Shown: positions 8,959 to 63,778 of the stretch, piece by piece
Layout of the letters: every line of letters begins with the position of its first letter
Numbering within the stretch: position 1 is the first letter of the stretch
From: Candidatus Daviesbacteria bacterium
Lineage (GTDB): Bacteria; Patescibacteriota; Microgenomatia; Daviesbacterales; UBA10151
Direction: 5' to 3'
Assembly: GCA_041690695.1 (NCBI GenBank)
Contig: JBEPVZ010000002.1
Coordinates: 1,454-65,453 of the forward strand
Length of the DNA stretch: 64,000 bases
The notes under the pieces: model-generated
Database searches by the model: none
Told to the model about the DNA's origin: nothing
The model's input: the letters and a program-made list of their open reading frames with translations, nothing else
Position numbers and translations under genes: made by a program

Positions 8959-9012
8959 TGCTCATGCCAATTGTTTTTTAGGCTCAGAAAATGAGACAAT
9001 AATTCTAATCTT

Positions 9013-27106: not shown

Positions 27107-28039
27107 TTATAAGATTTGTTTAATAATCTTTTGTTCATTTTTTTGGTTAGTTCTCGCCAACATCATTTCTGCGAGCAGTCCAGTCGAAATAAGTTGAACG
27201 CCAACAATCATTAGTAAGAGTCCAAATATTAAAAGAGGTTGATGTGAGGCAATTCCACCTGTTGTCACCCTTAGGTAAGTGATATATAAACCAACTAAAA
27301 AGCCAATTGTAAAGCTACTGAGTCCGAGTGTTCCGAAAAAATGACCTGGTCTTTTCATATAACCGGTAATAAATACAATTGTTAATAAATCAAGGATACC
27401 TTTCACTCCACGAGTCCAACCATATTTGGTTTTTCCATATTTTCTTGGTCGATGGTCGACAATAATCTCCCCAACCAGATAATTTTGTTTTGAAGCGATG
27501 ATTGGGATGAATCTATAAAGTTCCCCGTATAAATTAAGGTTCTTCACAACTTCTTTTTTGTATGCTTTAAACCCACAATTGGTGTCATGGATCGGAACTT
27601 TAGTTAAGTAGCGCGTAAGTGAGTTTAAAATTCTGGAGGGCAAAACTTTACTCAGTGAGGGATCATGTCTAACTTTTTTCCATCCGGAAACCAGATCGTA
27701 GCCCTCACTAATTTTCTTTAGAAATCGACCAATCTCGCGGGGATTGTCCTGGAGATCGGCATCAAGTGTGAAAATGATATCACCCCGAGCTTCATCAAAA
27801 CCGGTTTGCAATGCTATTGATTTTCCAAAGTTTCCTCTTAATCTAACAACTTTAACACGCCGATCTTGTTTTTTAATCTTTTTTAAGTTTTGGAAAGTTT
27901 TATCTTGTGATCCATCATCGACAAATATAATTTGATAAGGAAGCTTGATTTTTTTCATAACTTCCGAAATCTCTTTATATAATGGACCGACAGAACCTTC
28001 TTCGTCCTTGGCTGGAATAACGAATGATAACGATTGCAT
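27107..28039 (-). CDS. polyprenyl-phosphate glycosyltransferase, GtrB/ArnC/DPM1-like GT2 with two C-terminal TMs
   Basis: LSFVIPAKDEEGSV...IIFVDDGSQDKT...GNFGKSIALQTGFDEARGDIIFTLDADLQDNP, then the C-terminal hallmark LLMIVGVQLISTGLLAEMMLAR. The track ORF begins at a TTG (28078); the ATG at 28039 is the likelier start. Confidence 0.7.
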   Translation of the reverse strand: MQSLSFVIPAKDEEGSVGPLYKEISEVMKKIKLPYQIIFVDDGSQDKTFQNLKKIKKQDRRVKVVRLRGNFGKSIALQTGFDEARGDIIFTLDADLQDNPREIGRFLKKISEGYDLVSGWKKVRHDPSLSKVLPSRILNSLTRYLTKVPIHDTNCGFKAYKKEVVKNLNLYGELYRFIPIIASKQNYLVGEIIVDHRPRKYGKTKYGWTRGVKGILDLLTIVFITGYMKRPGHFFGTLGLSSFTIGFLVGLYITYLRVTTGGIASHQPLLIFGLLLMIVGVQLISTGLLAEMMLARTNQKNEQKIIKQIL

Positions 28040-28113
28040 TTTGGGGTTAAGTATATGAATTCTCTTACACAGTTGCAATCTGCTATTTATTACCGATAAA
28101 ATAACTCAAGTTT

Positions 28114-35214: not shown

Positions 35215-36196
35215 TATATTAAAGATTGATATTTCAGTAATAATTCCCGTTTTTAATGAAGCAGAAAGGATTGCTCGATGTTTAGAAAGCATTAGAAATC
35301 AGAATTACTCTCAAAATAGAATTGAAATAATTTTAATCGACGATTTCTCAACAGATCAAACATTAAAAATTGCTAAGAAGTATCACGTCAAAGTTTACAA
35401 GAATGGTTCACACAATATTGAAAAAGGGAAAAGCATTGGACTTGAACATGCTGGTGGAGAATTCGTCTTTTTTATTGATGCAGATAATTATTTAACTTCT
35501 CGAGATTGGTTTCAGAATGCTAGCTTAATTTTGAAAAAAAACTCAAAAGTTGTGGGTGTCCAATCGTATAAATACTTATATAAGTCGTCAGATCCTATTG
35601 TAAACCGATATTGTGCTTTGTTTGGTATAAATGATCCATTAGTGTTTTATCTTGGTAAGAGAGGTCAACTCCAAGCATATGAAAATAGTTGGATTTACCC
35701 GGAAACGCTATTAAAAGAAAACAAGCTTTTTTACTTAGCTAAATTTAATTCTGATAATTTACCAACAGTTGGTTCCCAGGGATATTTGACTAGAAAGAAT
35801 TTACTTTCAAAAACTGATTGGAAACCTTATTTATTTCATTTAGATTCGGCCCATGATTTAGTGTCCCAAGATAAAAATACTTTTGCATTTATTAAATATG
35901 AGATTGGACATGATTATGTTACTTCAATCGGTGATTTGATTAAAAAGTGGCAACGTAATATAAATCTTTATTATAAGTATGCTGAATTGCGAAGATATAA
36001 ATATCAGATTGATAAATTAAAATTAATCTTAATTCTTTTAATGATGATAACGATTGTTGGTCCGTTAATAGATAGTTTAAAAGGTTTTATCAAAAAAAGA
36101 GATCTAGCTTGGTTTTTACACCCATTGCTCTGTTTAATTGTGGTATTCATATATGGAAAAGAGACTATAAAAGCGTTAAACTATAAGTCAAATTGA
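35207..36196 (+). CDS. GT2 family glycosyltransferase
   Basis: ISVIIPVFNEAERIARCLESI...ILIDDFSTDQT...FFIDADNYL. One C-terminal TM. Confidence 0.6.
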   Translation: MSNILKIDISVIIPVFNEAERIARCLESIRNQNYSQNRIEIILIDDFSTDQTLKIAKKYHVKVYKNGSHNIEKGKSIGLEHAGGEFVFFIDADNYLTSRDWFQNASLILKKNSKVVGVQSYKYLYKSSDPIVNRYCALFGINDPLVFYLGKRGQLQAYENSWIYPETLLKENKLFYLAKFNSDNLPTVGSQGYLTRKNLLSKTDWKPYLFHLDSAHDLVSQDKNTFAFIKYEIGHDYVTSIGDLIKKWQRNINLYYKYAELRRYKYQIDKLKLILILLMMITIVGPLIDSLKGFIKKRDLAWFLHPLLCLIVVFIYGKETIKALNYKSN

Positions 36197-36206
36197 GTTT
36201 AGAACA

Positions 36207-36950
36207 ATGATTAATAAATTAAACGATAAATTTTATACAGATATCTATAGTCAGCAGACCGAAGACAAAAGTGATTTTCGCCAGATGGAATATTTATATC
36301 AGAGAATTCGATCGGTCTTGAAAAATCCAAAAACTATTTTAGATGTAGGTTGTGGTATTGGAACTTTTGGAGTAATTATAAAAAATCATCTACACAGTAA
36401 TGTATCCGGATTAGATATTAATAAAAAGGCTGTTGATACGGCTAGAAAAAGAGGTATTAAAGCTAGTATCTCTGATATTGAGGGCAAGTGGCCGATCAAA
36501 AATAACCAATTTGAACTTGTGTCACTTGTTCAAGTGATTGAACATGTTATGAATCCCGATCATTTGCTTCAAGAAGCGAATAGAGTTCTTAAAAATAATG
36601 GCTACTTAGTTATCGCAACTCCTAATTTAGCAGCTTGGTATAATCGGATCTTACTCCCTCTTGGTTTTCAGCCTTTTTTAACAGAAGTAAGTACTTTAGA
36701 TAAAACTTTAGGAATGAAGTTCATTCGTAAATTAACAAGTAACCGTCAACCATTAGGACATTTAAGAGTCTTTACACTCAGAGGCCTAAAAGATCTATTA
36801 GAGCATCATGGTTATAAAATTATATTGATTAAGGGTGGTAAACAAAGTTATTTTCCCCGTCTAATGCAAGGTATCGATTGGTTAATGTCTTTTTATCCTG
36901 CGCTGTCAACCGATCTAATTATTGTTGCCCAGAAAATCCGAGTAAAATAG
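36207..36950 (+). CDS. class I SAM-dependent methyltransferase
   Basis: Motif [13 protein letters not shown], then [11 protein letters not shown]. The C-terminus ...[10 protein letters not shown] matches 31230..31985. Confidence 0.65.
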
Positions 36951-36964
36951 GTGACTTCAAGGCT

Positions 36965-37546
36965 ATGAAACTTAAATATTTCGTCGGGCGGATTATCTTT
37001 AAAGTTCAGGCTGAGTATAAAAAAAGTCAATTAATTGAAGTTGGAAAGTATACCTATGGTCGACCAAAAGTAATTTATTACGGTGGGCCGGGCAAGGTTA
37101 TCGTTGGAAGCTTTTGCTCCATTGCTAAAAATACAACCTTTATTCTGACCGGAGGACATCGTCCGGAATGGATATCTGCGTATCCTTTCCCAAGCTTAAG
37201 TAATATCTGGCCATCTGCAAGAACAATTAAAAACTCAGTTTGTTATAAAGGAAATATTGTTATTGGTCATGATGTCTGGATAGGTTATGGTGCCACTGTC
37301 TTAGAGGGGGTTACGATAGGGGATGGAGCGATTATTGGAGCGATGTCTGTTGTTACAAAAGATGTCGCATCGTATTCTATAGTGGGGGGGAATCCCGCCA
37401 AGTTAATTAGAAAAAGATTTAGCGACCAGCAAATTAAAAAATTGATTAGATTAAAATGGTGGAATTGGCCAACGCGTAAGATTCTAAAAAGTATTCCATT
37501 ACTATGTAATTCAATCGATAATCTTGAGAAGCTGAGCCATGTTTAA
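36965..37546 (+). CDS. hexapeptide-repeat acetyltransferase of the XAT class (Vat/CatB-like)
   Basis: [13 protein letters not shown] matches the XAT HRxDWVSTYPF signature. LbH repeats ([32 protein letters not shown]) and a C-terminal [18 protein letters not shown] motif. The start is taken as ATG 36965; the track ORF from 36878 overlaps the upstream gene. Confidence 0.7.
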
Positions 37547-39158
37547 TAAATATTTAAAATTTTTTGTAGGTGGAGCGATCCTTTTAGGTATTCTTGTTTA
37601 TCTTCCTTTATGGAATGGATACTTCATTCAAGATGAGTGGCAACTTTTTTCAATTTTTGATTCATATAATAATCAAGGAGTTTTTCAGACTTTTTTATCA
37701 TTTATTATTCCACAACCTGGTCAATATGTACCAATTGCCCAAATTTTGGCATATGGAACATTCTTATTTTTTAAACTCAATTATTTAGGCTATTTTTTAA
37801 TCGGTATTGCTTTGCACTTTATTGTGGCTACATTACTTGCATATCTAGTCTATAGGTTAACTTTAAAGAAAGGATTTGGTGTATTGGCTGGATTATTATT
37901 TTTAATCTCACCTAGTCATTTTCAAGCTACTTCTTGGATTATCGCTAATTTTGGCTATAGCGGGGCAATGATCTTATTTTTATTAGGGCTAATTTTTTAT
38001 TTTAAATGGCTAGATTCAAATAATTTTAAAGATGCAATCCGAGCAGCCTTATTTTTATTTGGATCTTTATTGGCTAAGGAAATTACTATTTTTATTTTTA
38101 TTGCTTTACCGATCTTAACTTATGTATGGACCCAAAATAGGAAGAAAACTCTTCAAACTTTTTGGATTATTATCCCCGTTTTCTTATTTGCAATTTGGCA
38201 TTTTCTTTTTTTGAAGTTTAATCCAACTCCAGACTTGTCGGTCCATCCTTTAAATTTAGGCAATTTATTATCTCTTCCTTTTCGGGCAGTAGCCCAATCT
38301 TTGATTCCTGATCAATGGATTTACCACATTGCGGTTTATCTTGGTCGTCAGCACTTTCTCTTAAATCATATTGCTGCACTCAGAACTAACTTTGATACAG
38401 TTACTCAATCGACGGGCGCGTTAATAATTGTTTTAATTATTAATTTAATTATGTTTATTGGAGGAGTATTTATATATCGGAAAAATCGTTTATTGTTTAA
38501 AATGTATCTCTCTGGGATTATTTTGACAGCTTTATCAAGCTTTCCTTATATTTATGTAGATACAGCCAGATTCTCACTATTGCAGCCACGCTATGTGTAT
38601 ATGGGGGTAGCCTGTATGAGTTTGTCCGTGATTGCATTACTTGAGACGCTTTTAAAAGTAAATCGAAAAGCTACCTTTTTATTGGGTTTTATAATTATCA
38701 TGAGTTTTAGTTTGGCGACTTATAATAATTCACGGGGCTTGGCGAATGAGGGTATTATTAGAAAATCTTTACTAAAAGCCATTTCAAATTCTATTCCACA
38801 AAATTCAAATCAAACAATTATTTATATTGAATCAGATTCACCATATTATGGACTGGTCGAGAGTGTTCATATTTTGCCATTCCAAAATGGTTTAGGAAAA
38901 ACTTTAGCTATATATTTAGCAGATAAAGTTTATATTCCTCCAGTTGTTTATGTTTCAAATACATTATGGCCTATTCAAAGTCAAGGTGTTTTTTATAATC
39001 AATACGGTGCTTTTGGATACTTTAGAGACTACAACACCCTTAAAGAAGCTGTTTTGATACAAAAGCTCTCCCCCGAAAACATTTACGCTTTTTCATGGCA
39101 TGATACAACTCAAGCCTTACAGAATATTAGTCAACAAGTCAGAGAATCTTTAAAATGA
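37539..39158 (+). CDS. polytopic membrane protein (GT-C or polymerase-like, family unclear)
   Basis: 539 aa with about 12 TMs. QDEW in the first loop. No soluble catalytic domain recognised. Confidence 0.4.
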
Positions 39159-42082
39159 TTATTTTTTTGAAATGGTTTAAATATATTTTGCTACTATGTT
39201 TTTGTCTTACTCCACTAGTCTGGTTTAAGGGCCACCCCTTAGCTATTATTGATGGAGTTGATACCAACTTTCCTTTGAATCCTTTGGTCTGGTTTCTTCG
39301 GCGATTTTATGATTGGAATGATATTGGTAATGCCGGGAGCGACTTCTCTTCTTCTGTTGCCGGATTATTCTTTCATTTTATTCAACTTGTACCTTATCTT
39401 TTAGGATTTAGTCTTCATTGGGTTGAATTAATTAGCTTAATATTTTGGTTTAGTGCAATTGTCTTAGGATCATATTTCTTCGCCCGCGTAATTTTACCCA
39501 AAAATAGTCTAGCACAGCTAATTTTAGTTAGCCTTTATTCTTTTAATATCTATTTATTTAATACTTGGGAGAATGTTAAAGTTTCAAATTTATGTTTAGC
39601 TGCAGTTTTACCTGCCTTTTTAGCTCTTTTGCTTGCATTTGATAAAAGGCTACTTAATTTGTCTCGTTTAATCTTTTTAGCAACATTATTCGCAATTATA
39701 GCTTCTGGTACGGGTATTAATCCGGCTTATTTTTTGACCTTAATTATGGCAATTTTTATTTTAAGCGTTATGAGGCTATTATATGTTCCTCAAAAGCTAG
39801 AGAGAATCTTAATCTTAAAAAGTACATTTTTAGTTTTAGCAATTCTTTTTTTTGTTAACCTATTTTGGATTTTACCAACAATTAACCATTTATTATTTTC
39901 AGGCAATAAACTCACTCAAATTAGTGATATTGGATTTAATGATTGGGTTGATAGTCTGTCAGCGAATACTAGTTTATTAAATACTTTTAGATTCCAAGGA
40001 GCATGGGACTGGTATACGATTGATACTGGGTCGAGCTTACCCCTTTATATTCCATATGCAGTTAGCTATTTTAATCGATTATCCTTTTTAAGTTATAGCT
40101 TTTTATTAACAGGCTTAGCTCTCGTAGCCTATCTTTTTAGAAGGAAAGACCAGGCGGTTTTATATAGTTTTTTGGGGGTAATGGGAGTATTAGCAATCTT
40201 CCTCGGATCTGGTAGCCATCCACCAACTGGTACTTTATTCAATCTGTTAGATCGACATGTGCCTTTTTTCTCGTTTTTTCGCAGCCCTTGGTATATATTT
40301 ACTCCGCTATGGATTTTGGCAGAAGCGGGGTTAATTGCTTTACTCATTTCAAATTTAAAAATAAAATCTTCGAGATGGGCAATCGGATTATTTACTGTTC
40401 TTGTATTGGGGAATATTATTTATTGTTATCCGCTTTGGACCGGTAAAATTTTTCGTCCAAATCGACCAGATGGCTTTTATATAAACTTCCCAAATTATGT
40501 AAATCAATCAGCTAATTGGTTAAATGATAATTATAGTTCGACGAGTCCCCAACGAATCATCGCTTATCCTAATGATGAAATTGAACAGTTCAAGTGGGGA
40601 TATCGAGGAATTGAATCCATTCTTGAGCTTTTTGCTAAAAACGAGGTTTTGTTTGCTTCTATTAATGGTATTCAATCTCCGCTGGATGGTGTCGTGAACT
40701 TATTTTATCAGACTGCTGCAAAAGGCCAAAGGGAGGCTGCTTCTAATTTAGGAGAAAAGCTTAATTTAGGGCTAATCTTTCAAAAGAACGACCAGAGTTC
40801 TCTCTCACAAAAATTACCCGACAATTTTTTAGTGACAAAAGTTACTCAGTTTAATGCTTGGAGCTTCTATAAGTTTCCAAACGCGCTTCAACCTAAAATA
40901 TTTACAGCTACTAATTTAATGGCTAACTATTCGGTTAGCCCGGCCGTGATCGAGCCCTTATCGGTTTTACCGATCGATAGTTTGCTTATAAATCCTCATG
41001 ATCAAGTTGTTGCAGGAATTCCCCAGTCAAGCGATTTTACAGGCCAGGTTATTTTAACGACTAACTCTCAATTAACGGATATGACAGGGGTTAAATCAGT
41101 TGGTCCAGAATTAAACTTTCAACAAAAGGATCTATCTGTTGTTAAATTTAGTTTTAATATTCCGCAAAAAGGTTCATATCAAGTGGTTTTAGATAGATAT
41201 CAGGTCGAGCAGTTTGGAATTGACTTAAATAATAATCTTAAGATAACGCTTGATGATAATGATACCTTCTTACATCCGGATAAAGTAACAGATAGTTTTA
41301 TTTATTTTTCAGATTTAGATTTGAGCGAGGGGAATCATCAATTATCCTTTAATTTGACAGAGTCAAGTCCGATTCTTAACCAAGGCATTTTTAAGTACCA
41401 ACTAGCGACTCTAGACCCGCTATCAAGTTATTTGATTCAATTTGAATATAAATCTGACTATGCTCAAAGTAATCAATTGAAGTTAGAACAATTTAGCCCC
41501 TCATCGCCAGTTCAGTTTGTTAGTAAGCAACTTCCTTTTTCTTCAGATTGGCAGGTTTATAATCAATACTTTACACCAATCCAAACAAATTCAAAATTAA
41601 ATATTGAATTTACCAGTTTGAACACTTTGGGAAGGACGGGCAATAAAGCAATCTATCAAGGGTTAACAGTTAAAAAGGTGTTTTTAAATAACCTGTTTTT
41701 AATTAATAAATCAGATATTAAACCGCTCCAAACTTCAATAATTAATTTTAATCAGGTTTCACCTGTACTTTATACGGGAGAAGCTAAGAACGCAGATCAT
41801 CCCCAACTGCTTGTTTTCTCAGAGAATTATTCACCAAATTGGAAATTAAGTCTTTATGATGATAATGGAGAGTCACTTATTGTTAAGCCGCTTCATTTCA
41901 CAGCCAATAATTATGCAAATGCTTGGTATATCGAAGGAGTTCCTTCGAGCTATCATTTTAAAATTTATTATACTCCTCAAAGTATTTTAAACCTTGGATT
42001 TTTAATTTCAGGTTTAACAGTTCTTATTAGTTTGGTTTTTGCTCTTCTGCAGATTAAAAAACACAAGTTAAGCAAAAAATGA
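39155..42082 (+). CDS. very large membrane protein with YfhO-like architecture (N-terminal TM bundle, large ectodomain, single C-terminal TM anchor)
   Basis: 975 aa. About 13 TMs in the first roughly 430 aa and about 500 aa of hydrophilic domain. A C-terminal TM (GFLISGLTVLISLVFALL) is followed by basic residues KKHKLSKK. Confidence 0.45.
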   Translation: MIIFLKWFKYILLLCFCLTPLVWFKGHPLAIIDGVDTNFPLNPLVWFLRRFYDWNDIGNAGSDFSSSVAGLFFHFIQLVPYLLGFSLHWVELISLIFWFSAIVLGSYFFARVILPKNSLAQLILVSLYSFNIYLFNTWENVKVSNLCLAAVLPAFLALLLAFDKRLLNLSRLIFLATLFAIIASGTGINPAYFLTLIMAIFILSVMRLLYVPQKLERILILKSTFLVLAILFFVNLFWILPTINHLLFSGNKLTQISDIGFNDWVDSLSANTSLLNTFRFQGAWDWYTIDTGSSLPLYIPYAVSYFNRLSFLSYSFLLTGLALVAYLFRRKDQAVLYSFLGVMGVLAIFLGSGSHPPTGTLFNLLDRHVPFFSFFRSPWYIFTPLWILAEAGLIALLISNLKIKSSRWAIGLFTVLVLGNIIYCYPLWTGKIFRPNRPDGFYINFPNYVNQSANWLNDNYSSTSPQRIIAYPNDEIEQFKWGYRGIESILELFAKNEVLFASINGIQSPLDGVVNLFYQTAAKGQREAASNLGEKLNLGLIFQKNDQSSLSQKLPDNFLVTKVTQFNAWSFYKFPNALQPKIFTATNLMANYSVSPAVIEPLSVLPIDSLLINPHDQVVAGIPQSSDFTGQVILTTNSQLTDMTGVKSVGPELNFQQKDLSVVKFSFNIPQKGSYQVVLDRYQVEQFGIDLNNNLKITLDDNDTFLHPDKVTDSFIYFSDLDLSEGNHQLSFNLTESSPILNQGIFKYQLATLDPLSSYLIQFEYKSDYAQSNQLKLEQFSPSSPVQFVSKQLPFSSDWQVYNQYFTPIQTNSKLNIEFTSLNTLGRTGNKAIYQGLTVKKVFLNNLFLINKSDIKPLQTSIINFNQVSPVLYTGEAKNADHPQLLVFSENYSPNWKLSLYDDNGESLIVKPLHFTANNYANAWYIEGVPSSYHFKIYYTPQSILNLGFLISGLTVLISLVFALLQIKKHKLSKK

Positions 42083-42447
42083 TCAAAACTTTTCTAAAAT
42101 CCCTTAATATTTGGAAACCTACAATTGAAGATTGGGCACGAAATCATGTTTTAGGGTTATTTATTTTTAACTTAATTTTAATGTTATTAATATTGCTACA
42201 TTCAGCGGGTTATTTTGCGCCATATCTTGAAATTACAATTAACCTCATTTTCTTTATATGCTTACTTGCCTTAATTTTATTATTAAAAGCTACGAGCAAA
42301 GTTATCTTTATTATTGCGATTGCCTTTTGGATATTTGCGGGAGTACTTAGAATTATTGGAATCGATATTTGGGCAGAGCGAACAGCTATTTATACTTTTG
42401 AGGGTTTTTTAGTAGGGGTCTTTCTCCAAATAATCGAGGATAAATAA
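42079..42447 (+). CDS. small 4-TM membrane protein, GtrA-like in size and topology
   Basis: 122 aa with four hydrophobic helices. It sits between two YfhO-like genes with 4-bp overlaps. No sequence motif confirmed. Confidence 0.4.
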   Translation: MIKTFLKSLNIWKPTIEDWARNHVLGLFIFNLILMLLILLHSAGYFAPYLEITINLIFFICLLALILLLKATSKVIFIIAIAFWIFAGVLRIIGIDIWAERTAIYTFEGFLVGVFLQIIEDK

Positions 42448-42468
42448 GTCTAATGATTTATTTTTTTA

Positions 42469-45123
42469 TTGCGGGTAGTGAATCTTTTAGCTACAATTGA
42501 GATCACCAAAATGAAAAAATGGATTCTAGTAATTATCCCATTCCTAATTATTTTTCAATCTTTTTTTAGTGGCTCACATCTAGTATGGGGCGATTCACCA
42601 TACTTTTATCCTGAAAATTTAAAAGAATTATTCTCTTTGCCGCAAGCATGGGATAATCGTACTGATAATTTTGGTGGGCCGCAGAACTTAGTTTTATGGT
42701 TATATTTTCCAACTTTTTTGTACGGTCTCATTAACCACTTTTTAGGATTAAGTAATGATTGGTTAATTAGAATAATTTTTTACTTTCCGGCTACGATTCT
42801 TGGTATAAGTGGCTGTTATTTCTTTTTAAAGCGCTATACCCAAAATACTATCTCCCAACTTTTCGGAAGTTTAATCTATTTATTTAATAGCTATTTTTTA
42901 TTATTGATCGATGGAGGACAAGTTGGTGTTGCGCTCGCATATGGATTATTTCCATGGGTGGTATATTTAGGATTAAGTTTTTTAAACAAAAATAAACTCC
43001 AAAGTTATCTGGCGAGTTTAATGGCTCTAATTCTCATAACGAATATTGATTTAAGAGTTGCGATATTGTCGGTTGGGATGATTATCGTATTAAGCCTGTT
43101 TGATTTTAAAATTCCAAAGCGTTGTATCTTAAAAGGTCTGACACTTTTATTTGTTCCAATTATTTTAATAGATGCTTTTTGGCTTATACCACTTCTTCAG
43201 GCGACGGTATCATCACAGATTATCGCTATTCCACTTGTACAAGACTTAAAAACGACGACATTACTCGATAGTTTAGTACTTTTTCAACCACATTTCCCTT
43301 TGAATGAATTTGGGCATATCTTTCCGATCCCATTTTATTATTTTGTCTTACCGCTGTTGTTAATTATTGGTGGACTATTAAAAAAGGATAATAAGTATTT
43401 ACTCATTTTATTTTTGTGTTTCGCCTTTTTAGCCAAGGGTTCTACCTTTCCGTTTGGCAAAATTTATGATTTTTTGGTAACTAAACTTCCATTCGGAATT
43501 GCATTTCGTGATTCAACTAAGTTTTATATTCCTTTAATAATGTTGGCCAGTATTCTATTAGCATTTTTTGTTGATTATCTTAAAAAGTTAAAATATTGTG
43601 GAGTTTATTTAGCGCTGTTATATATTTATTTACTTATTCTAATTTACCCAAGCTTAATCGGAGGTCTGACAGGAGTTTTAAGTAAAAATACCACCAATAC
43701 TGATCAAGACACCATGATCTATCAATTGCTAAAGACCAAAAGTGATGTTAGAAGTTTATGGTTTCCTGAAAAATTACCGTTAGCTTTTAGTAGCCAGCAA
43801 GTTCCGGCTATTTCGGCGGATAGCTTGTATTTAGAAAGACCATTTGCATCCATGATCGATGGCACATATGATTTATACAACTATCTAAATAGTCCTCAAC
43901 TTATTCCCTGGCTTAAATTAGTTGGCACTCAGTATTTATTCTTTCCGGAAAATGATCGTAAAAAAACTTGGTCAAATCAAGATGTCTTAGAGAGACAGCA
44001 GTTTATAAGCTTTGTTGATAAAGTATTCTCCACCGAGCAAAGGCTTAGTTTAAATTATCCGGCTTTTAAATTAGATCAGGTTGCATCTCACTTTTTTACG
44101 GTTCCTAAAGTTTATTTTGTGCTGGGCGGGGAAGAGCTTTATAATCAGATTTTTAGAGATAAACCTAATTTTAATTTAGCTAATCAAGGTTTTGTCTTTT
44201 TAGAAGATCCTCGGTTAAACCTTAATCAGTTAAATATGATTAAACAGGGTGATGCTTCAACAATTATATTGGGTAATAAGACTCGAGATGACTTGGCGAT
44301 GGTTTACCTTAACCAAAGCTTATTGAGTGACAAAGCTGTTGTAACTAAAAAGTGGGGTCAAAGATCTGGGGCAGAATATTTAGATTGGAAAAGTGAGTTA
44401 TTAAAAGGTGGAGTTAGAACATATGATTTTGCCAATTCAAGCTCAGTTTATTTTTCTTCAATTAATGGTGAGCTACTGAGTTACAAAAGTAATTTGAGAG
44501 AGGGAGATTATGAGTTGGCGATAAGAAATACTTCAGCTTCAGATAGCGCTAAGTTAAGATTAGAAATTAACAATCAATCTTTCGATGTGAAGGCAAAAAG
44601 TTCAAATCAGTTTACTTGGCAAATAATTGGGCCGATTCATTTATCAGGTAATCAAAAATTAGATATTACCAATCTAGGTGGTTTTCAGGCTATTAATGGA
44701 GTGGCAATTATTAATCAAGATAGTTTGAGTTGGGCTAGAAGCCAAGCAGATCAGCTCCTCAGCCGTTTGCCGCCAGCTCAACTAACAGATATTGAGGCAA
44801 GCTCCGATAAATTTGGTTTGGCTGATGATCAATTTATTAATCTTACGGAACATCGACTTAATTTAAGATCTTCAGATAATTGGTTAATTATGACCGATCA
44901 TTATGATTCTGGTTGGAAGATCAATCCAAGTTCAATCAATTTACCTGGATATGCCATGTTTAATGCCATTTATTTAAGTTCGCACACAGCAGACCAGCTG
45001 ATTGATTTAAAATATCAGCCTCAAAGGACCGTTGATCTTGGTTTAAGAGTATCTTTATTGTCAGCTGTCGTTTTACTATTATGTTTAGGTGGATATTATT
45101 TAAAAAAAAGACATGAATATTAG
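42469..45123 (+). CDS. very large membrane protein with YfhO-like architecture
   Basis: 884 aa. N-terminal TM bundle, roughly 400-aa ectodomain, and a C-terminal TM (LLSAVVLLLCLGGYYL) followed by KKRHEY. The true start may be the ATG at 42511 (MKKWILVII). Confidence 0.45.
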   Translation: MRVVNLLATIEITKMKKWILVIIPFLIIFQSFFSGSHLVWGDSPYFYPENLKELFSLPQAWDNRTDNFGGPQNLVLWLYFPTFLYGLINHFLGLSNDWLIRIIFYFPATILGISGCYFFLKRYTQNTISQLFGSLIYLFNSYFLLLIDGGQVGVALAYGLFPWVVYLGLSFLNKNKLQSYLASLMALILITNIDLRVAILSVGMIIVLSLFDFKIPKRCILKGLTLLFVPIILIDAFWLIPLLQATVSSQIIAIPLVQDLKTTTLLDSLVLFQPHFPLNEFGHIFPIPFYYFVLPLLLIIGGLLKKDNKYLLILFLCFAFLAKGSTFPFGKIYDFLVTKLPFGIAFRDSTKFYIPLIMLASILLAFFVDYLKKLKYCGVYLALLYIYLLILIYPSLIGGLTGVLSKNTTNTDQDTMIYQLLKTKSDVRSLWFPEKLPLAFSSQQVPAISADSLYLERPFASMIDGTYDLYNYLNSPQLIPWLKLVGTQYLFFPENDRKKTWSNQDVLERQQFISFVDKVFSTEQRLSLNYPAFKLDQVASHFFTVPKVYFVLGGEELYNQIFRDKPNFNLANQGFVFLEDPRLNLNQLNMIKQGDASTIILGNKTRDDLAMVYLNQSLLSDKAVVTKKWGQRSGAEYLDWKSELLKGGVRTYDFANSSSVYFSSINGELLSYKSNLREGDYELAIRNTSASDSAKLRLEINNQSFDVKAKSSNQFTWQIIGPIHLSGNQKLDITNLGGFQAINGVAIINQDSLSWARSQADQLLSRLPPAQLTDIEASSDKFGLADDQFINLTEHRLNLRSSDNWLIMTDHYDSGWKINPSSINLPGYAMFNAIYLSSHTADQLIDLKYQPQRTVDLGLRVSLLSAVVLLLCLGGYYLKKRHEY

Positions 45124-46375
45124 TCAGATTTTAAAAACTAAAACTATTTCCCATATTTCAATTAGTACTTTCGGGACTCTTTTAAATGGAATTTTGGGTG
45201 CATTATTTTTTATTATCTTAGCCAAAGCTTTGGGCCCTTCAGATTTTGGGTTATTTGCTGTGGCTATCGCAACCTTAACTTTAATCTCGGATATTGCTGA
45301 CTCGGGAATTAATACAGGACTAATTAATTTTATAAGTAGGCATTTATCATCAAATACTGATCAAGCCTATCGTTTCTTAAAACTCGGTTTAGAAATCAAG
45401 ATAATAATCTGGTTAATCATTTTGCCAATTGGGTGGTTACTGGCACCTTTCCTGTGTCAGACTATTTTTCAAAAACAGGAATTAATTAATCCAATTCGGG
45501 TGATGATGATCGGGGTTGGAGGAGCACTTTTATTCTCCTTTGCAACCAATGCCCTCCAAGCTCTTCAGAAATTTTGGGCATGGAGTTTTCTAAATATTCT
45601 AAGTAATGGGTTACGCTTAATCCTAATTGGTTATCTTGTCTTAATTGGTCGACTTAGTCTCCCTAATGTTTTGTGGGTTTATGTGGGTATTTTATTCCTG
45701 GGGTTTTTTATAGGCTTGAAGTTTCTACCTTTAAGATTCTTAAAAGTTACTAATGAAAAATCAGTTGGCAGAGAATTCTTTCACTATAATAAATGGATTG
45801 CTTTATTTACGATTTTAGCAGCACTTTCTTCAAGATTAGATACTTTTTTAACGGCCCGCTTAGTCACAACTGCTCAACTTGGAATCTATTCAGTGGCTGT
45901 TCAATTATCTTCGGCAGTTCCACAACTAGTTTTTGCGATAGCAGCGGCGATTGCGCCTAAACTGGCTAGTTTTACGACTGATCAACAAGCTAAAAGTTAT
46001 TTAATGAAACTTCAGCTACTTGTTATTGGTATTGCCTTACTTGGAACTGTTAGTTTCCCAATCGCTTACTACTTCTTCCCTTGGCTTGGTCCAGTTTATC
46101 AAGCAAGTATTATGCCATTTATTATTTTAATGGTGGCTCAATTAATATTCTTAATTGCCATCCCGACTCATCAAGTGATCTTCTATTACTTTCAGAAACC
46201 TAACTTCTTTTTTAAGGTCTCATTAATTAGATTTTTTCTAACCCTTGGAGCAGGTTACTTCTTAATTTTAAATTATGGAATTATTGGGGCAGCTTTAGCG
46301 GTTCTAATTGGTAGTTTATCGGATTTCATTTTACCCGCGGTTTGGGTTATTTATCGATTCAATAGACGTAAATAA
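45113..46375 (+). CDS. Wzx-like oligosaccharide flippase (MOP superfamily), second copy
   Basis: 420 aa with about 12 TMs. The N-terminus LLNGILGALFFIILAKALGPSDFGLFAVAIA is Wzx-like. Confidence 0.55.
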   Translation: MNISQILKTKTISHISISTFGTLLNGILGALFFIILAKALGPSDFGLFAVAIATLTLISDIADSGINTGLINFISRHLSSNTDQAYRFLKLGLEIKIIIWLIILPIGWLLAPFLCQTIFQKQELINPIRVMMIGVGGALLFSFATNALQALQKFWAWSFLNILSNGLRLILIGYLVLIGRLSLPNVLWVYVGILFLGFFIGLKFLPLRFLKVTNEKSVGREFFHYNKWIALFTILAALSSRLDTFLTARLVTTAQLGIYSVAVQLSSAVPQLVFAIAAAIAPKLASFTTDQQAKSYLMKLQLLVIGIALLGTVSFPIAYYFFPWLGPVYQASIMPFIILMVAQLIFLIAIPTHQVIFYYFQKPNFFFKVSLIRFFLTLGAGYFLILNYGIIGAALAVLIGSLSDFILPAVWVIYRFNRRK

Positions 46376-47196
46376 TGAAAAAACTTTGGGCAAATGTTTT
46401 AGTTAAGAATGAGGATCGCTATCTCTGGTTTGCGATCATGAGTGTTATTGAGCATGTTGATAAGGTTTTAGTCTGGGATACTGGAAGTTATGATCAAACA
46501 ATATTTATTATTGAGGAGCTTCAAAAGAAATATCCCCAAAAAATTATATATGCTAAAAAAGGTCTTCATTCTCCAGAGGGGGTCTCAAAACTTAGACAAG
46601 AGATGCTGGAAGCTAGTCTTTCAGATTGGATTTTAATTTTAGATGGTGATGAGGTTTGGTGGAAAGATTCTTTAGAAGAGATCCACAAAATTATTAATAA
46701 TTCTAACAATAATCTCTACGCATTAGTTAATCCAACGATTAATTTAATAGGCGATATTTACCATTATCAACCGGCTGAAGCGGGGCAGTATCAAATTTTG
46801 GGTAAAAAGGGTCATTTAAATATTAGATTTATTAATAAACGTACGCCTGGGCTACATGTTAGTGGAATTTATCCGAATGAAGGATTTTATAATAGTGATA
46901 ATATTTTAATTCAAAACTTGGATAGTCATTTAAAATATGTGGATTTGCCATTATTACATTTTACTCACCTGGCACGTTCAACAAAATTTAATAATCCTAA
47001 ACAAAAATATGAACTTGGTAAGACATTTCCCTCTACATTTAAATATCCTGAATCATTAAATCAAAACCGACCGGTATTTGTAATTAGCCCATGGAAAACG
47101 AGAACAAAAGGCTATATTATGAGGGCAGGTTTTGAGACACCGTTAAAAAAGCTTAAAAGGAGAGCGGTTAAGGTTAAACTTAAGATTTTGAAGTAA
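46375..47196 (+). CDS. GT2-like glycosyltransferase (group A-like)
   Basis: ANVLVKNEDRYLWFAIMSVIEHVDKVLVWDTGSYDQT...ILDGDEVW parallels the 4558 and 6306 paralogs. Confidence 0.55.
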   Translation: MKKLWANVLVKNEDRYLWFAIMSVIEHVDKVLVWDTGSYDQTIFIIEELQKKYPQKIIYAKKGLHSPEGVSKLRQEMLEASLSDWILILDGDEVWWKDSLEEIHKIINNSNNNLYALVNPTINLIGDIYHYQPAEAGQYQILGKKGHLNIRFINKRTPGLHVSGIYPNEGFYNSDNILIQNLDSHLKYVDLPLLHFTHLARSTKFNNPKQKYELGKTFPSTFKYPESLNQNRPVFVISPWKTRTKGYIMRAGFETPLKKLKRRAVKVKLKILK

Positions 47197-47199
47197 AAT

Positions 47200-47949
47200 A
47201 TGTACCGCGGAAAATCAGTTTCAATTGCAATCGCGACTTACCGCGAAAAAAACTCGATCAGGCAAGTTATTGATAATTTTTTTGAGACTGGTTTTGTTGA
47301 TGAAGTTATTGTGGTTAACAATAATGCTGAAAAAGGTACTGACCAGGAAGTTAAAAAAACTAAGGCTAAAATAATCTATGAGACCAGGCAAGGATATGGT
47401 TATGCCTTTCAAGCGGCTATTAAATCGGCCACTGGAGACTATGTTGTTGTTTGTGAACCAGATGGGACATTTTTAGCAAAAGATTTAGAACGATTTTTAA
47501 TTTATGCTGAAGATTTCGAAGTAGTTTTAGGAACAAGGACAAGCCAGATCGGTTCGTTATCTGGTCGGGGAATGGGTCTGGCTCGAAAGTTTGCTAATGT
47601 TATTGAGGCAAAAACGATAGAAGTTTTATTTAATAGTTTTGCTTTAACCGATGTTGGTTGTGCCTATAAATTATTTAGACGTCAAGCTTTAAAAAAGATT
47701 ATTCCTTTGTGGAAAAATGAAAAGTCCCCTTTATTTAATACTGAATTAATTTTATTAACGGTCAGCCTAAAACTAAAGTTCGTTGAAATTCCAATCTCTT
47801 ATAATAAGCGTATTGGAACCTCATCAATTGTTGGTAAACGCTACCAAGTTATCAAATGGGCTTTTGTTATCCAATTTTATATTTTTATATTTTGGCTAAA
47901 ATGGTTGATTTTAAAAATGGAGAAGACTAGTAAAAGATCTAAAATTTAA
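47200..47949 (+). CDS. GT2 glycosyltransferase, DPM1/GtrB-like with a C-terminal TM (probable polyprenyl-phosphate sugar synthase)
   Basis: VSIAIATYREKNSI...VIVVNNNAEKGT...QGYGYAFQAAIKSATGDYVVVCEPDGTF. A C-terminal hydrophobic helix (WAFVIQFYIFIFWLKWLIL). Its stop shares a TTAA with the stop of the convergent gene. Confidence 0.55.
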   Translation: MYRGKSVSIAIATYREKNSIRQVIDNFFETGFVDEVIVVNNNAEKGTDQEVKKTKAKIIYETRQGYGYAFQAAIKSATGDYVVVCEPDGTFLAKDLERFLIYAEDFEVVLGTRTSQIGSLSGRGMGLARKFANVIEAKTIEVLFNSFALTDVGCAYKLFRRQALKKIIPLWKNEKSPLFNTELILLTVSLKLKFVEIPISYNKRIGTSSIVGKRYQVIKWAFVIQFYIFIFWLKWLILKMEKTSKRSKI

Positions 47950-49415
47950 TGTTGATAAACATAAGCTTTAAAACCACCTTGTTCGAGCATATATTTATAG
48001 TTTAGGGGAGCTATCGTTGGGGCTCTTTTTTCCGTCATTAAAACTGAGTACTCCGTTGCGCTGGATGAAACTTCTTGGGGATAAAGCCAACTAAAAACTG
48101 AATCTTCGGAACTATGAGCTGGCTTTCGAGCATAATTACTAAAAAGATATCTCCAACCTTCATATTTATGACATGCTCCATCTTGATCTAAATCGTAACT
48201 ATTTTGTCCGACAATATTCATGACTTGTCCGATGAGCTTATTTTTAGTAGCGAGACCAAAATCTCCGCTAGCTGTAAAAACAGTAAAGATGCCATGGATA
48301 ACAAATAAGATGATTACAATATAAGCTAGAATCCTTATTTTTTTAGAAAATGATTCTATAAGTGATGCCATAACTAAAAAGAGGAGAGGAAAAAATCCGA
48401 GTAGATAATATTCAATCGGATGAATAACTGGTAAGGCAATGAATGGAATAAGAAATGACAAACTAAGTAAAACGATTAATCTTGTTTTTGGATTAGTCCA
48501 GGTCGCCTTTTTAATACTAAAGTATAACAAGCCGATTAGAGTTATGGCTGATAATACTAAGCTGCCTTGAGTAGTTGTCGAAAGGGGATTTGTAATACAC
48601 GGATATAAAATTTCATCGGCATTATTTCGATTAGGTGTTAAATACCAGACTCGACTGAAAGATTGAAGAAGGCTATTAAAACGAAGTCCAAGATCTATGT
48701 TGACATGATATTTACTGGAAGATTGTAGAATTCTAATAGGGGTAGTTATATTGCTAGCCTTATGAAAGTAATCAAAAGCGATTAAAGGCGAAATCGTTAT
48801 GATAAATGCCAGAAAACTGAGGATTAAGATTTTTTTATTCAATTTTTTTCTTTGAATAAATGCCCAATAAAGGGCGACTATGATAATGAGAAAAAGAGAC
48901 AAGTGGATATGGAAGACCATTCCGTATGAAATAGCGAAAACAATCCACCATTTATTAGAGCGACTGGTCAGATAAAGTGATATGGCCATCAGTAAAGATA
49001 AAAACGGAACTCCGGGGGGATAAGGCTGCTGGTCATAATAGACCATTAGTGCTGAGCTGGCGTAGAGAAGGGCTGCAACTAGGCCAACTTTTTTATTAAA
49101 AATATATGTGCCAAGTAGATATAGTAAAAAAACTGCTCCAACCCCAAGTAAGCTGGAAATTACTCCCAAAACCAGCGGATTACCTTGGAACAAGGCTACA
49201 AATGGATAGATAATATATATCCAGAGAGGCCCCATGTAAAAATCAAAGCCTAAGGCGCTAACACCAATCCAAATAATATGGAAATGTTTAACAATCGTTT
49301 GAGTAATATAAAGCAAATATTCTTCATCTGGAGTAAAAACCATCAACTTAGAAAGAGTTACTAATCTGATGATTGCTGCCAATAATAAGATGACAATCAA
49401 GGCGTATTTTTGCAT
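47946..49415 (-). CDS. GT-C glycosyltransferase, ArnT/PMT-like (GT39/83-type)
   Basis: The N-terminus AIIRLVTLSKLMVFTPDEEYLLY carries the DE(E) loop motif. About 12 TMs, 489 aa. Confidence 0.6.
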   Translation of the reverse strand: MQKYALIVILLLAAIIRLVTLSKLMVFTPDEEYLLYITQTIVKHFHIIWIGVSALGFDFYMGPLWIYIIYPFVALFQGNPLVLGVISSLLGVGAVFLLYLLGTYIFNKKVGLVAALLYASSALMVYYDQQPYPPGVPFLSLLMAISLYLTSRSNKWWIVFAISYGMVFHIHLSLFLIIIVALYWAFIQRKKLNKKILILSFLAFIITISPLIAFDYFHKASNITTPIRILQSSSKYHVNIDLGLRFNSLLQSFSRVWYLTPNRNNADEILYPCITNPLSTTTQGSLVLSAITLIGLLYFSIKKATWTNPKTRLIVLLSLSFLIPFIALPVIHPIEYYLLGFFPLLFLVMASLIESFSKKIRILAYIVIILFVIHGIFTVFTASGDFGLATKNKLIGQVMNIVGQNSYDLDQDGACHKYEGWRYLFSNYARKPAHSSEDSVFSWLYPQEVSSSATEYSVLMTEKRAPTIAPLNYKYMLEQGGFKAYVYQH

Positions 49416-59524: not shown

Positions 59525-59860
59525 CTATAAGATTGTAATTAATTTGCATACATTTCGTAGAATAATCTTCCTTTTACTTGATGTTAATTCTCCAGCCTTA
59601 CCACTAAGTATGGACATATCTGCTGTAAACAGCTTATCTGGTCTCACAAAGCTTTTTAAGGGAAGACCTCCTTTTGCAAAATCGGATTGTTCTATACTTA
59701 TCGCTGTTTTACTTGAATAAGATTTTGAGGTGATTTGGCATAAAATCAAATTATCAAATTCAACTTGAGCTAATACTAATGCTGGACGAATTTTCTTCCC
59801 TTTCAGATTAGAAAATGGAAAAGAAACTAAAACAATACTACCTACTGTAAACTTTTCCAT
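59525..59860 (-). CDS. mazF: MazF/PemK-family type II toxin (mRNA interferase)
   Basis: 111 aa. GSIVLVSFPFSN..GKKIRPALVL is the PemK/MazF N-terminal signature. It overlaps the upstream antitoxin gene by 19 bp. Confidence 0.7.
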   Translation of the reverse strand: MEKFTVGSIVLVSFPFSNLKGKKIRPALVLAQVEFDNLILCQITSKSYSSKTAISIEQSDFAKGGLPLKSFVRPDKLFTADMSILSGKAGELTSSKRKIILRNVCKLITIL

Positions 59861-61477: not shown

Positions 61478-62367
61478 AAGTTGCAATTATCATTGTTGAG
61501 TTTAATACCCGAGATATTTTAAAGAACTGTTTAGAATCGATCTATAAATATAAGTGGCAAAACCAGTTTGAAGTTTTAGTAGTCGATAACGCTTCAACTG
61601 ATGATTCAGTCGAAATGGTCAAAAAAAACTTCCCAAAAGTCAAAGTTATTTCAAGTTCAAAAAATTTAGGTTTTGGAGGAGGTAATAATCTTGGATTAAA
61701 GTCTTCAGATGGCGATTATTATTTACTTCTTAATTCGGATACTATTGTTTTAGATAACTCGCTTGATAATTTAGTTGAGTTTGCTAAAACTCACGACTAT
61801 GGTCTTTCGTCTTGTAAACTACTAAATGCTGATAAAACCTTGCAGCCTAACGTCGGTGATTTACCAATTGGACTGGCTTTATTTAACTGGTTATCCGGTT
61901 TAGATGATTTATTGTCTAAATTTGGTTTTAATCTGTCTTCTTTTCATCAAAGATCATCTGCCTTTTATAAAAAGTCCCGCCAAGTTGGTTGGGTCCAGGG
62001 GGCTGCCATGTTAATTAGAAAAGATGTTTTCGAAAAAATTGGCGGGTTGGACGAGGGTATCTTTATGTATGCTGAAGACGTCGAGTACTGTATGAGAGCT
62101 CAAAAAGCTAAATTTAAAATCGGATTTACAAATAAAGCTGAGATTATTCATTTAGGTGGTGCGAGTTCTTCGGACCCTAGTCTAAAACAGTGGTCTGGCG
62201 AATTTATCGGTTTAATCTATATCTACAAAAAATATTTTAGTAGCTTGGCACAACTAATTTTAAAAGTCTTATTGTATATCTTTATTATTATGAGGATAAT
62301 TATCTTCTTAGCCTTAGGCAAATTTAAAATTGCCTCAACCTATGCAAAAATTATATCAACTTTATAA
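61474..62367 (+). CDS. GT2 family glycosyltransferase (group B)
   Basis: VAIIIVEFNTRDIL...VLVVDNASTDDS...NLGFGGGNNLG...MYAEDVEYCMRA. Confidence 0.65.
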   Translation: MKVAIIIVEFNTRDILKNCLESIYKYKWQNQFEVLVVDNASTDDSVEMVKKNFPKVKVISSSKNLGFGGGNNLGLKSSDGDYYLLLNSDTIVLDNSLDNLVEFAKTHDYGLSSCKLLNADKTLQPNVGDLPIGLALFNWLSGLDDLLSKFGFNLSSFHQRSSAFYKKSRQVGWVQGAAMLIRKDVFEKIGGLDEGIFMYAEDVEYCMRAQKAKFKIGFTNKAEIIHLGGASSSDPSLKQWSGEFIGLIYIYKKYFSSLAQLILKVLLYIFIIMRIIIFLALGKFKIASTYAKIISTL

Positions 62368-63778
62368 TAAATACTTTTTTTGGGTGATAGTTGCCTTAAT
62401 GGCTTTTATCCCTCTTTATCCCAAATTGCCATTATTAAATGTCTCAGGGACTTTCGTGGCGATTAGATTAGAAGACTTTTTAATTGCGGCGACATTAATT
62501 ATTTGGGCGATCTTCTCGGTACCGAAGATTAAAACTTATCTTCATCAGCCGATTCTTCAGGCAATGATCTTATTTTGGTTAATTGGGGGTTTAGGAGTTT
62601 TGTCGGGGGTTTTTATTACCAATAGTGTTAACTTTCATTTAGGTTTTTTTAACTGGTTAAGACGGATCGAGTTTATGTCCTTATTTTTAGTCGGAGCCAC
62701 GGTTTTTCGGACACTTAAACAGATCAGAATATTGGTTGGAACGATTGTTCTAACAACAATTTTAGTTAGTCTGTATGGTTTTGGACAGGTCTGGTTACAT
62801 TTCCCTGTCATTTCAACCAGTAACAACGAATATTCCAAAGGCTTAATCTTAACTTTGACTCCGGGGACTCGGGTTAATTCAACGTTTGCTGGTCAATATG
62901 ATTTAGCGATTTATTTAAATATCGCTTTGGCTATTTTAAGTAGTTTATTTTTTTATTATAAAAAGCTTTTTCAAAAAATTGTTGTTTTAGTCGCTTCCGG
63001 GTTGGGATTTGTGTTGTTAACAATGACGACCGCCCGAATGTCTTTTGCCGCAACCATGACTAGTGTGGCCCTAGCCTTTTGGCTAACCGGTAAAAAGCTC
63101 TTAATTGGCTTATTAATTTTAGGCGGGATAGCGGCCTTAATTATCAGTCCAGATTTAAGGCATCGGATTGTGGCAACAGTAACGGTTAATCTGTTAAACG
63201 GTGGTGGCCCGAAATATAATCCGCCTGCGGGAACTGTTAATATCTTTACCCCAATTCAAAAGATTCCACCGGCTGAGCGCAATCAATACTTAGCTCAAGC
63301 TTTAAAAGAATCGACTTTATCAGCTAGTCAATCATCAAAGATTCCACGAGATATTAGTGCCGGTGAACCGATTAATTCAACTGAGCTTGGGGTTTATCGC
63401 TCACTCGGTATTCGAACGAATGTTGAATGGCCGAGAGCCATTCGGGCTTTTAAAGAAAATCCATTGTTGGGTACTGGATACTCATCAATTACCTTAGCTA
63501 CTGATAATGATATTTTAAGATCTTTAGGTGAAACTGGATTACTTGGAACACTCAGTCTAATCTTTGTGTTTGCGATTTTAATTAAAGGGATGTGGAGGTT
63601 TATAAGACTTGGTCGTGGGCTTAAAAAACTGTTTACAATTGGAGTCTTTACTGGATTTATTGGTTTACTTATGACCAGTACTTTTATTGATGTTTTTGAA
63701 GCTTCAAAAATTGCTGAAGTATTTTGGTTAATATTAGGTGTAAACTGGGCTTTAATAACTCAAGCTGAAGATGATTAA
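62330..63778 (+). CDS. O-antigen ligase/polymerase-family membrane protein (Wzy_C-like)
   Basis: About 11 TMs. The periplasmic-loop block LLTMTTARMSF resembles the Wzy_C (T/S)QSRG motif with its conserved Arg. The downstream DNDILRSLGETGLLG resembles the HN..L..L.E.G..G block, with Asp in the His position. Start uncertain (62330 or 62342). Confidence 0.5.
   Translation: MPQPMQKLYQLYNKYFFWVIVALMAFIPLYPKLPLLNVSGTFVAIRLEDFLIAATLIIWAIFSVPKIKTYLHQPILQAMILFWLIGGLGVLSGVFITNSVNFHLGFFNWLRRIEFMSLFLVGATVFRTLKQIRILVGTIVLTTILVSLYGFGQVWLHFPVISTSNNEYSKGLILTLTPGTRVNSTFAGQYDLAIYLNIALAILSSLFFYYKKLFQKIVVLVASGLGFVLLTMTTARMSFAATMTSVALAFWLTGKKLLIGLLILGGIAALIISPDLRHRIVATVTVNLLNGGGPKYNPPAGTVNIFTPIQKIPPAERNQYLAQALKESTLSASQSSKIPRDISAGEPINSTELGVYRSLGIRTNVEWPRAIRAFKENPLLGTGYSSITLATDNDILRSLGETGLLGTLSLIFVFAILIKGMWRFIRLGRGLKKLFTIGVFTGFIGLLMTSTFIDVFEASKIAEVFWLILGVNWALITQAEDD

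Follow-up and report, generated by a model that had tools for sequence, protein, structure and literature searches.

This analysis concerns a 64,000-nucleotide (nt) stretch of DNA from a Candidatus Daviesbacteria bacterium (contig JBEPVZ010000002.1; the whole stretch is called the window below), in which genes for large membrane-bound glycosyltransferases of the GT-C type lie next to a gene for a four-helix membrane protein of 122 amino acids (aa). We put the probability at roughly 55% that this region is part of a very large island for cell-surface glycan assembly in which two separately conserved GT-C modules abut, and, jointly with this, that the 122-aa protein serves the AftD-like enzyme encoded directly upstream as a dedicated membrane partner or subunit, as its linkage and topology suggest. 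The first module (A, 37539-42447) would combine a 539-aa PMT_2-like GT-C, a 975-aa AftD-like GT-C with ectodomains resembling carbohydrate-binding modules (CBMs) and the lineage-specific 122-aa protein. The second module (B, 42511-47196, extending to 47949 in the window) would consist of an 870-aa GT-C, an overlapping MOP/Wzx-like flippase and a GT2 enzyme. A dedicated partner is favoured because the small family occurs only beside this one GT-C subfamily, because the start of the small gene overlaps the stop of the enzyme gene, and because the conserved surface of the 122-aa protein faces outward.

Gene order was read in eight loci obtained by exact-protein look-ups and in 34 loci picked up by scanning species-representative genomes, using open reading frame (ORF) calling and hidden Markov model (HMM) searches, and linkage was counted over the 28 loci besides the window that each carry a close AftD-like gene. 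A homolog of the small protein starts between -61 and +20 nt from the stop of the AftD-like gene in 26 of the 28, with a 4-nt overlap as the commonest arrangement. The exceptions are L022, where the contig is truncated, and L029, where the absence is genuine. L029 holds the only close AftD-like gene that has enough downstream sequence and still no partner, and the gene that comes next encodes a 613-aa polytopic membrane protein in the opposite orientation. On their short contigs, P0303 and P0308, which diverge most within the small family, are also encoded directly 3' of the C-terminal end of an AftD-like gene. Homologs of the 539-aa protein were present in all 28 loci and abut the start of the AftD-like gene in about 21 of them. 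The conserved unit is a PMT_2-like GT-C gene followed by an AftD-like GT-C gene and the gene for the small four-helix protein.

The gene of the 870-aa family, on the other hand, usually lies one to four genes away from the three-gene unit and directly follows the small gene only in the window and at L025, L037 and L041. The arrangement that the preliminary description had treated as a unit, two giant proteins flanking a small one, thus marks the place where two independently conserved blocks meet, and the small protein is tied to its upstream neighbor only. Many of the species-representative records carry the title 'uncultured Gammaproteobacteria bacterium' (L009-L012, L014, L016, L017 and others) or 'Candidatus Woesearchaeota archaeon' (L023); these titles conflict with gene content and named relatives, and the records look like mislabelled metagenome-assembled genomes.

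All three ORFs of the preliminary description were recovered with the lengths it gave, namely 975 aa (39155-42082, forward strand), 122 aa (42079-42447, forward strand) and 884 aa (open from TTG at 42469 to 45123, forward strand). It had further placed 4-bp overlaps at both junctions of the small gene, and this holds for the first one only (ATGA, 42079-42082), an arrangement that is consistent with translational coupling of the 975-aa and 122-aa genes. The second junction is a gap, measuring 21 nt from the stop at 42447 to the TTG at 42469 and 63 nt to an ATG at 42511. The latter start, which yields the 870-aa product (42511-45123) used throughout this text, is backed by an invariant M1 in the family alignment, while the corresponding NCBI product has 881 aa. 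A promoter and terminator scan of 36000-48500 gave counts equal to the shuffled expectation and nothing within the gap at 42447-42511. Since all three ORFs have many homologs, none of them is a chance ORF; for the 122-aa ORF these amount to 62 clusters.

By its predicted structure the 975-aa protein is an AftD-like GT-C. Hydropathy and an AlphaFold model built from 90 sequences (predicted local distance difference test, pLDDT, 90.8; predicted template modelling score, pTM, 0.88) agree with the layout proposed earlier, with a bundle of transmembrane (TM) helices at about residues 1-430, a hydrophilic domain of about 500 residues at about 430-940 and a C-terminal TM segment at about 941-974 (942-968 by hydropathy), which is followed by the basic tail KKHKLSKK. 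In the model, approximately 11 N-terminal TM helices are joined to a soluble GT-C domain, CBM-like beta-sandwiches and a single C-terminal TM anchor, and the ectodomain also gave CBM-like matches. The top match of a Foldseek search against the PDB was AftD of M. abscessus (6W98, E 4.7e-20, TM-score 0.54), with AglB (8e-6), DPY19 (4e-4) and ArnT (1.5e-3) far weaker. GT-C_AftD (PF11847) was matched by 12 of 26 orthologs (best E 3.7e-11), and some homologs are labelled by NCBI as 'alpha-(1->3)-arabinofuranosyltransferase family protein' or 'DUF3367 domain-containing protein'. Homologs of each of the two giant proteins number in the hundreds and are full-length, with about 35-45% identity; those with a named source belong to Microgenomates-group Patescibacteria (Daviesbacteria, Woesebacteria and Blackburnbacteria).

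Residue D36, located in the segment GVDTNFPL shortly after TM1, is invariant in the 90 sequences. In AftD the acidic residue of the first outer loop after TM1, D41, is essential, and D36 corresponds to it by position only. An invariant acidic residue directly after TM1 is common to the 975-aa, 870-aa and 539-aa families. Compared with mycobacterial AftD (6W98, 6WBX, 6WBY), identity is only about 12-14%, the chain is 975 rather than about 1400 aa long, the phylum is a different one, and the AftD-type C-terminal four-helix bundle is absent from the same chain, a single C-terminal TM segment being found in the 975-aa protein and in all relatives examined. AftD has been reported to form a working complex with another membrane protein, TmaT (bioRxiv 10.64898/2026.07.31.741767), and MmpA to be similar to the first 11 TM helices of AftD.

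Two distant loci contain single ORFs with two complete AftD-like units in tandem, each with TM bundle, ectodomain and anchor (L036:35-5443, 1802 aa, and L039:3779-9661, 1960 aa); the contigs are labelled Saccharibacteria and Berkelbacteria. Two adjacent AftD-like genes occur at L032, L037 and L042. By analogy with Pmt1-Pmt2 or EmbA-EmbB, AftD-like GT-Cs may work in pairs.

The first gene of the unit (37539-39158, forward strand) encodes a polytopic protein of 539 aa that appears to be a divergent PMT_2-like GT-C, and its end overlaps the start of the AftD-like gene by ATGA (39155-39158). The window protein itself had no Pfam or NCBIfam match, while PMT_2 was matched by five of the 27 members of its family (best E 5e-6). 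In the family alignment (A7), D32-E33 are invariant and stand right after TM1. The single 539-aa sequence showed no relationship to the 870-aa family in hhalign, and the family profile matched nothing meaningful among PDB sequences. In nine of the 27 members there is an additional domain of the F5/8 type C kind (discoidin, galactose-binding-like), which the window version lacks; L004:4927-7017, L005:5044-7017 and seven others are examples, corresponding to about a third of the genomes.

For the 122-aa protein, the four hydrophobic helices noted previously were reproduced in an AlphaFold2 model (pLDDT 85) with helices at residues 2-43, 54-69, 73-93 and 96-121. An exhaustive HMM search of 1.84 billion protein representatives collected 62 clusters of this family, all 52-206 aa long, compared with 13 homologs found by a word-based search, and neither the 62 matches nor the distant AftD-like homologs included a fusion of the small protein to a larger one. 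Two motifs are conserved, SAGYFxP in the TM1-TM2 loop and WAERTxxY in the TM3-TM4 loop, as are the polar residues N31 and N55 inside the helices. By average charge over the 62 sequences, three segments fall on the cytoplasmic side, namely the N-terminus (+3.4), the helix 2-helix 3 loop (+1.4) and the C-terminus (+1.9). With this N-in/C-in topology both motifs would lie on the outer face, where the active site of a GT-C is also located. Against the PDB, Foldseek returned nothing below E=3 for the model and no small multidrug resistance (SMR) structure, and the family profile gave only a chance-level match to a TM segment of yeast Ste2. A literature search for this family in Microgenomates, or for DUF3367 outside mycobacteria, retrieved nothing relevant, and both the 122-aa family and the three-gene unit appear to be undescribed in the searchable literature.

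In a distant lineage, a 368-aa membrane protein is encoded directly 3' of an AftD-like gene (L032:12393-13499), and its last approximately 45 residues show a weak match (E 1.7e-7) to the portion of the small-protein profile that covers WAERT and helix 4. The 122-aa partner may have a larger relative in this protein.

The small protein had been assigned to the GtrA family on the basis of size and topology. Its size and a count of three to four TM helices do fit GtrA, yet these features are generic and not diagnostic. PF04138 had no match in the window protein or any of the 62 members at E<=1, and hhalign of the family against E. coli GtrA (YfdG) gave a probability of 0.14%. SMR identity (EmrE/ArnE-like) was rejected as well, with no Multi_Drug_Res match in the 62 members and a BcrC model score of 17 bits against a cut-off of 225. 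The likeness to GtrA proteins such as E. coli YfdG and mycobacterial Rv3789 consists of a length of about 120 aa, four TM helices and a gene beside GT-Cs. In contrast, the 122-aa family has no detectable sequence relation to them and different motifs, and its gene comes after that of the GT-C, whereas the GtrA gene stands before a GtrB-type synthase gene. Rv3789 has reportedly been proposed, alternatively, as an anchor that recruits the GT-C AftA. GtrA proteins are proposed polyprenyl-phosphate-sugar flippases, with direct evidence of flipping lacking (PMC11127046).

The second giant protein has the layout proposed for it by hydropathy, with a TM bundle at residues 1-391, an ectodomain and a single TM segment at 840-865 followed by KKRHEY. 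It matched Pfam PTPS_related (PF10131) marginally above threshold (27.6 bits against a cut-off of 26.4) and NCBIfam MmpA (NF053599) with E 9.5e-11, at 41 bits against an equivalog cut-off of 210; PTPS_related was matched by seven of 26 relatives (best 1.6e-9). D28 after TM1 is invariant in this family, and the ectodomain has a weak CBM-like match. Its TM domain matches both models, whereas MmpA has only about 540 aa, lacks a large CBM-like ectodomain and C-terminal anchor, and is tied to trehalose-lipid export in Corynebacterineae. BLASTP aligned the 870-aa and 975-aa proteins at 26% identity over 330 aa of the TM domain only (E 7e-11), and hhalign of the two families extended the relationship to 768 columns including the ectodomain and C-terminal anchor (probability 99.8%, E 8e-29). 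From these two comparisons, the giants are therefore ancient paralogs in the AftD/MmpA/PTPS_related branch of GT-Cs. The duplication of the GT-C step suggested previously thus stands as paralogy, but it is an ancient one and each giant belongs to its own conserved block.

That block continues with a gene for a 420-aa protein with multiple TM segments by hydropathy (45113-46375, forward strand), which shares 11 nt with the end of the 870-aa gene. With matches to Polysacc_synt (PF01943, 82.1 bits against 28.2) and Polysacc_synt_3 (63 bits), this MOP-superfamily (Wzx-like) gene is a flippase candidate with real homology support. A Polysacc_synt gene directly follows the 870-aa family gene at L002, L005, L007 and L008, and at 10 of 13 loci in a wider set. 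Next comes a gene for a 273-aa GT2 glycosyltransferase with no hydrophobic segment (46375-47196, forward strand; Glycos_transf_2 E 1.4e-11), a homolog of which follows the MOP gene in eight loci. Besides the window, 10 or more loci were counted as having the order 870-aa family, Polysacc_synt, GT2. The 870-aa GT-C, the MOP flippase and the GT2 enzyme are the best-supported synthase-flippase-GT-C set in the region. The general logic of such a module, as outlined before, is reasonable, but the flippase candidate was the wrong one, homology speaking for the MOP/Wzx-like gene and not for the small protein.

In its combination of synthase, flippase and GT-C, module B would resemble three-component systems already published. 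The system of Citrobacter youngae GT136 combines a polyprenyl-phosphate-ribose synthase, a MATE-family flippase and a CBM-bearing GT-C (PMC11127046). Module B would share with it a GT-C with CBM-like ectodomain, a multi-TM flippase of the MOP/MATE superfamily and a cytoplasmic transferase. On the other hand, the GT-C belongs to another family, and the synthase is a GT2 here and dependent on phosphoribosyl pyrophosphate there. A Wzx-type variant noted for streptococci is a further parallel (PMC8035078).

Several observations weigh against a dedicated partner of an AftD-like enzyme or against parts of the assignment. At L029 a close AftD-like gene (8995-11841) stands without the small gene, and the more distant AftD-like proteins of Omnitrophota, Saccharibacteria and Berkelbacteria likewise lack a small partner; because of the latter, such a partner is not required by the fold. 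The score of the 975-aa protein itself for GT-C_AftD is 14.8 bits against a cut-off of 26, and the profile of its family did not reach AftD or any other match among PDB sequences. The 870-aa and 539-aa proteins are classed as GT-Cs from sequence profiles, models having been built for the 975-aa and 122-aa proteins. Finally, the adjacency of the 122-aa gene to a GT-C gene would also fit a dedicated flippase.

This last reading, in which the 122-aa protein is a polyprenyl-phosphate-sugar flippase, a non-homologous analogue of GtrA, Rv3789 or ArnE/F that feeds the donor to the AftD-like GT-C, is unlikely overall. In its favour, size and the four-helix N-in/C-in topology of the protein are suitable, the helix-internal N31 and N55 could line a path, and its gene is in tight linkage with that of a GT-C whose lipid-linked donor has to be flipped, in a window with no GtrA-family gene. 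Small proteins have moreover been proposed for this role in the classical systems (PMC8035078; PMC11127046). However, sequence similarity to GtrA or SMR proteins and an SMR-like PDB fold are both missing, as detailed above, and the conserved motifs are placed in outer-face loops rather than within the membrane. The 122-aa gene is also tied to a single GT-C subfamily, though the island has 13 GT-Cs and two MOP flippases, while known GtrA-type flippases are often common to several systems or encoded beside the synthase (PMC8035078).

A split AftD, with TM12 retained in the large gene and the 122-aa protein as the detached counterpart of the TM13-16 bundle, is more doubtful still. After the ectodomain of AftD, TM12 re-enters the membrane and is followed by a cytoplasmic loop and the four-helix bundle TM13-16, which packs on TM8/9 with both termini in the cytoplasm and binds acyl carrier protein (ACP) on the cytoplasmic face. 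In agreement with this order, the AftD-like protein has exactly one C-terminal TM segment, beyond which it terminates in the cytoplasm, and the overlapping next gene encodes a basic cytoplasmic N-terminal segment and four helices with N-in/C-in topology. Nevertheless, the profile of the small family misses AftD among PDB sequences, Foldseek of the small model misses 6W98, and no fused long protein exists among the 62 exhaustive matches. All distant AftD-like proteins have a single C-terminal TM segment with neither bundle nor partner, and in the paralogous 870-aa family the single anchor recurs, again with no partner of this kind. In addition, the AftD bundle acts cytoplasmically via ACP, whereas the motifs found here face outward. 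Only tentatively, and with similarly low odds, might the 122-aa family be regarded as an obligate membrane subunit of Microgenomates AftD-type GT-Cs that replaces TM13-16 and has its conserved surface turned outward, where it could position the lipid-linked donor or the acceptor glycan.

A YfhO pair served by a GtrA flippase and GtrB synthases, that is, a lipoteichoic-acid-type module duplicated at the GT-C step, is very improbable: the overall architecture resembles YfhO, both giants are paralogous and GT-C-type, and ArnC/GtrB-like GT2 genes are present, but neither the window proteins nor their families matched YfhO or GtrA HMMs at permissive thresholds, the best structural match is AftD, and the paralogy is ancient (identity being confined to the TM domain), with a conserved context for each paralog. 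For YfhO (PF09586), no match was obtained at E<=0.1 for either giant or at E<=0.01 for the 52 relatives (26 of each). What the earlier assignment captured correctly is that both giants are enzymes of the GT-C type, each with a large ectodomain and anchored at the C-terminus. This plan of N-terminal TM bundle, ectodomain and C-terminal TM segment is common to YfhO and AftD-like proteins and not diagnostic. The giants thus share the general plan of YfhO, which functions in lipoteichoic and wall teichoic acid glycosylation in Bacillus, Staphylococcus and Listeria, whereas their best family matches are AftD and PTPS_related. All of these proteins presumably belong to the same GT-C superfamily, going by Pfam clans. 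YfhO uses C55-P-sugar donors in a multi-component system (PMC8035078).

Going by their fold, the GT-Cs of module A would use polyprenyl-phosphate-linked sugars as donors and add them to an acceptor glycan at the outer face of the membrane, and the CBM-like domains of the GT-Cs would probably bind the surface glycan. With the large proteins, known kinds of enzymes gain new members, some of their orthologs already being assigned to the AftD family by NCBI, and the small family with its unit is an accessory variation on a known theme. Should the small protein prove to be an AftD-type subunit, it would offer a simple two-chain system for probing the enigmatic C-terminal bundle of AftD; should it be a flippase, it would represent a new family for a step that is unproven even for GtrA. 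Either outcome leaves the current understanding of GT-C systems standing. The analysis corrects two tempting annotations, YfhO and GtrA, and defines a conserved three-gene unit.

Profile scans of the ORFs characterize the entire window as a glycosylation island with 13 GT-C-like genes, which start at 1466, 9013, 10677, 12245, 15744, 24962, 31982, 37539, 39155, 42511, 47946 (reverse strand), 50260 and 53410. Patescibacteria (the candidate phyla radiation, CPR) are mostly uncultured and their cell envelopes almost unknown, and 13 such genes in 64 kb are a measure of the coding capacity spent on extracytoplasmic glycan assembly. The same scans revealed two MOP/Wzx-like flippase genes (16859-18097 as well as 45113-46375), about 20 GT2/GT4 genes and several methyltransferase and hexapeptide acyltransferase/acetyltransferase genes, and no GtrA-family gene among the window ORFs. 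A Wzy_C-like protein is encoded at 62330-63778, the match being weak and sub-threshold. Among the ORFs scanned, which cover the 64-kb window only, no UbiA-type phosphoribosyltransferase or DprE-like match for the synthesis of decaprenyl-phospho-arabinose was detected. Because no genes of this pathway were seen in the window, the sugar transferred by the AftD-like enzyme is probably not arabinofuranose.

For the GtrB-like synthases noted nearby, the window offers several candidates. A 323-aa ArnC/GtrB-type GT2 encoded at 27107-28078 on the reverse strand matched NCBIfam ArnC over its full length (E 1.9e-48) and PgfS (4e-38) and has two C-terminal TM segments by hydropathy (248-269 and 276-308); this candidate polyprenyl-phosphate sugar synthase could supply donors to the many GT-Cs of the window. 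Another candidate is a 249-aa DPM1/AglJ-like GT2 (47200-47949, forward strand) with a single C-terminal TM segment at 220-240 by hydropathy and matches to NCBIfam AglJ (E 5e-22), dolichyl-phosphate hexose transferase (3e-15) and PpgS (4e-6). A PpgS/PgfS-like candidate is encoded at 18138-18920.

Immediately upstream of module A, a 222-aa ORF with a TTG start (36878-37546, forward strand) overlaps the preceding methyltransferase gene by 73 nt; it encodes a hexapeptide acetyltransferase whose start is probably an internal Met (MKLKYF...). A 111-aa PemK/MazF-type toxin (Pfam E 1.5e-10) is encoded within the glycan island on the opposite strand (59525-59860).

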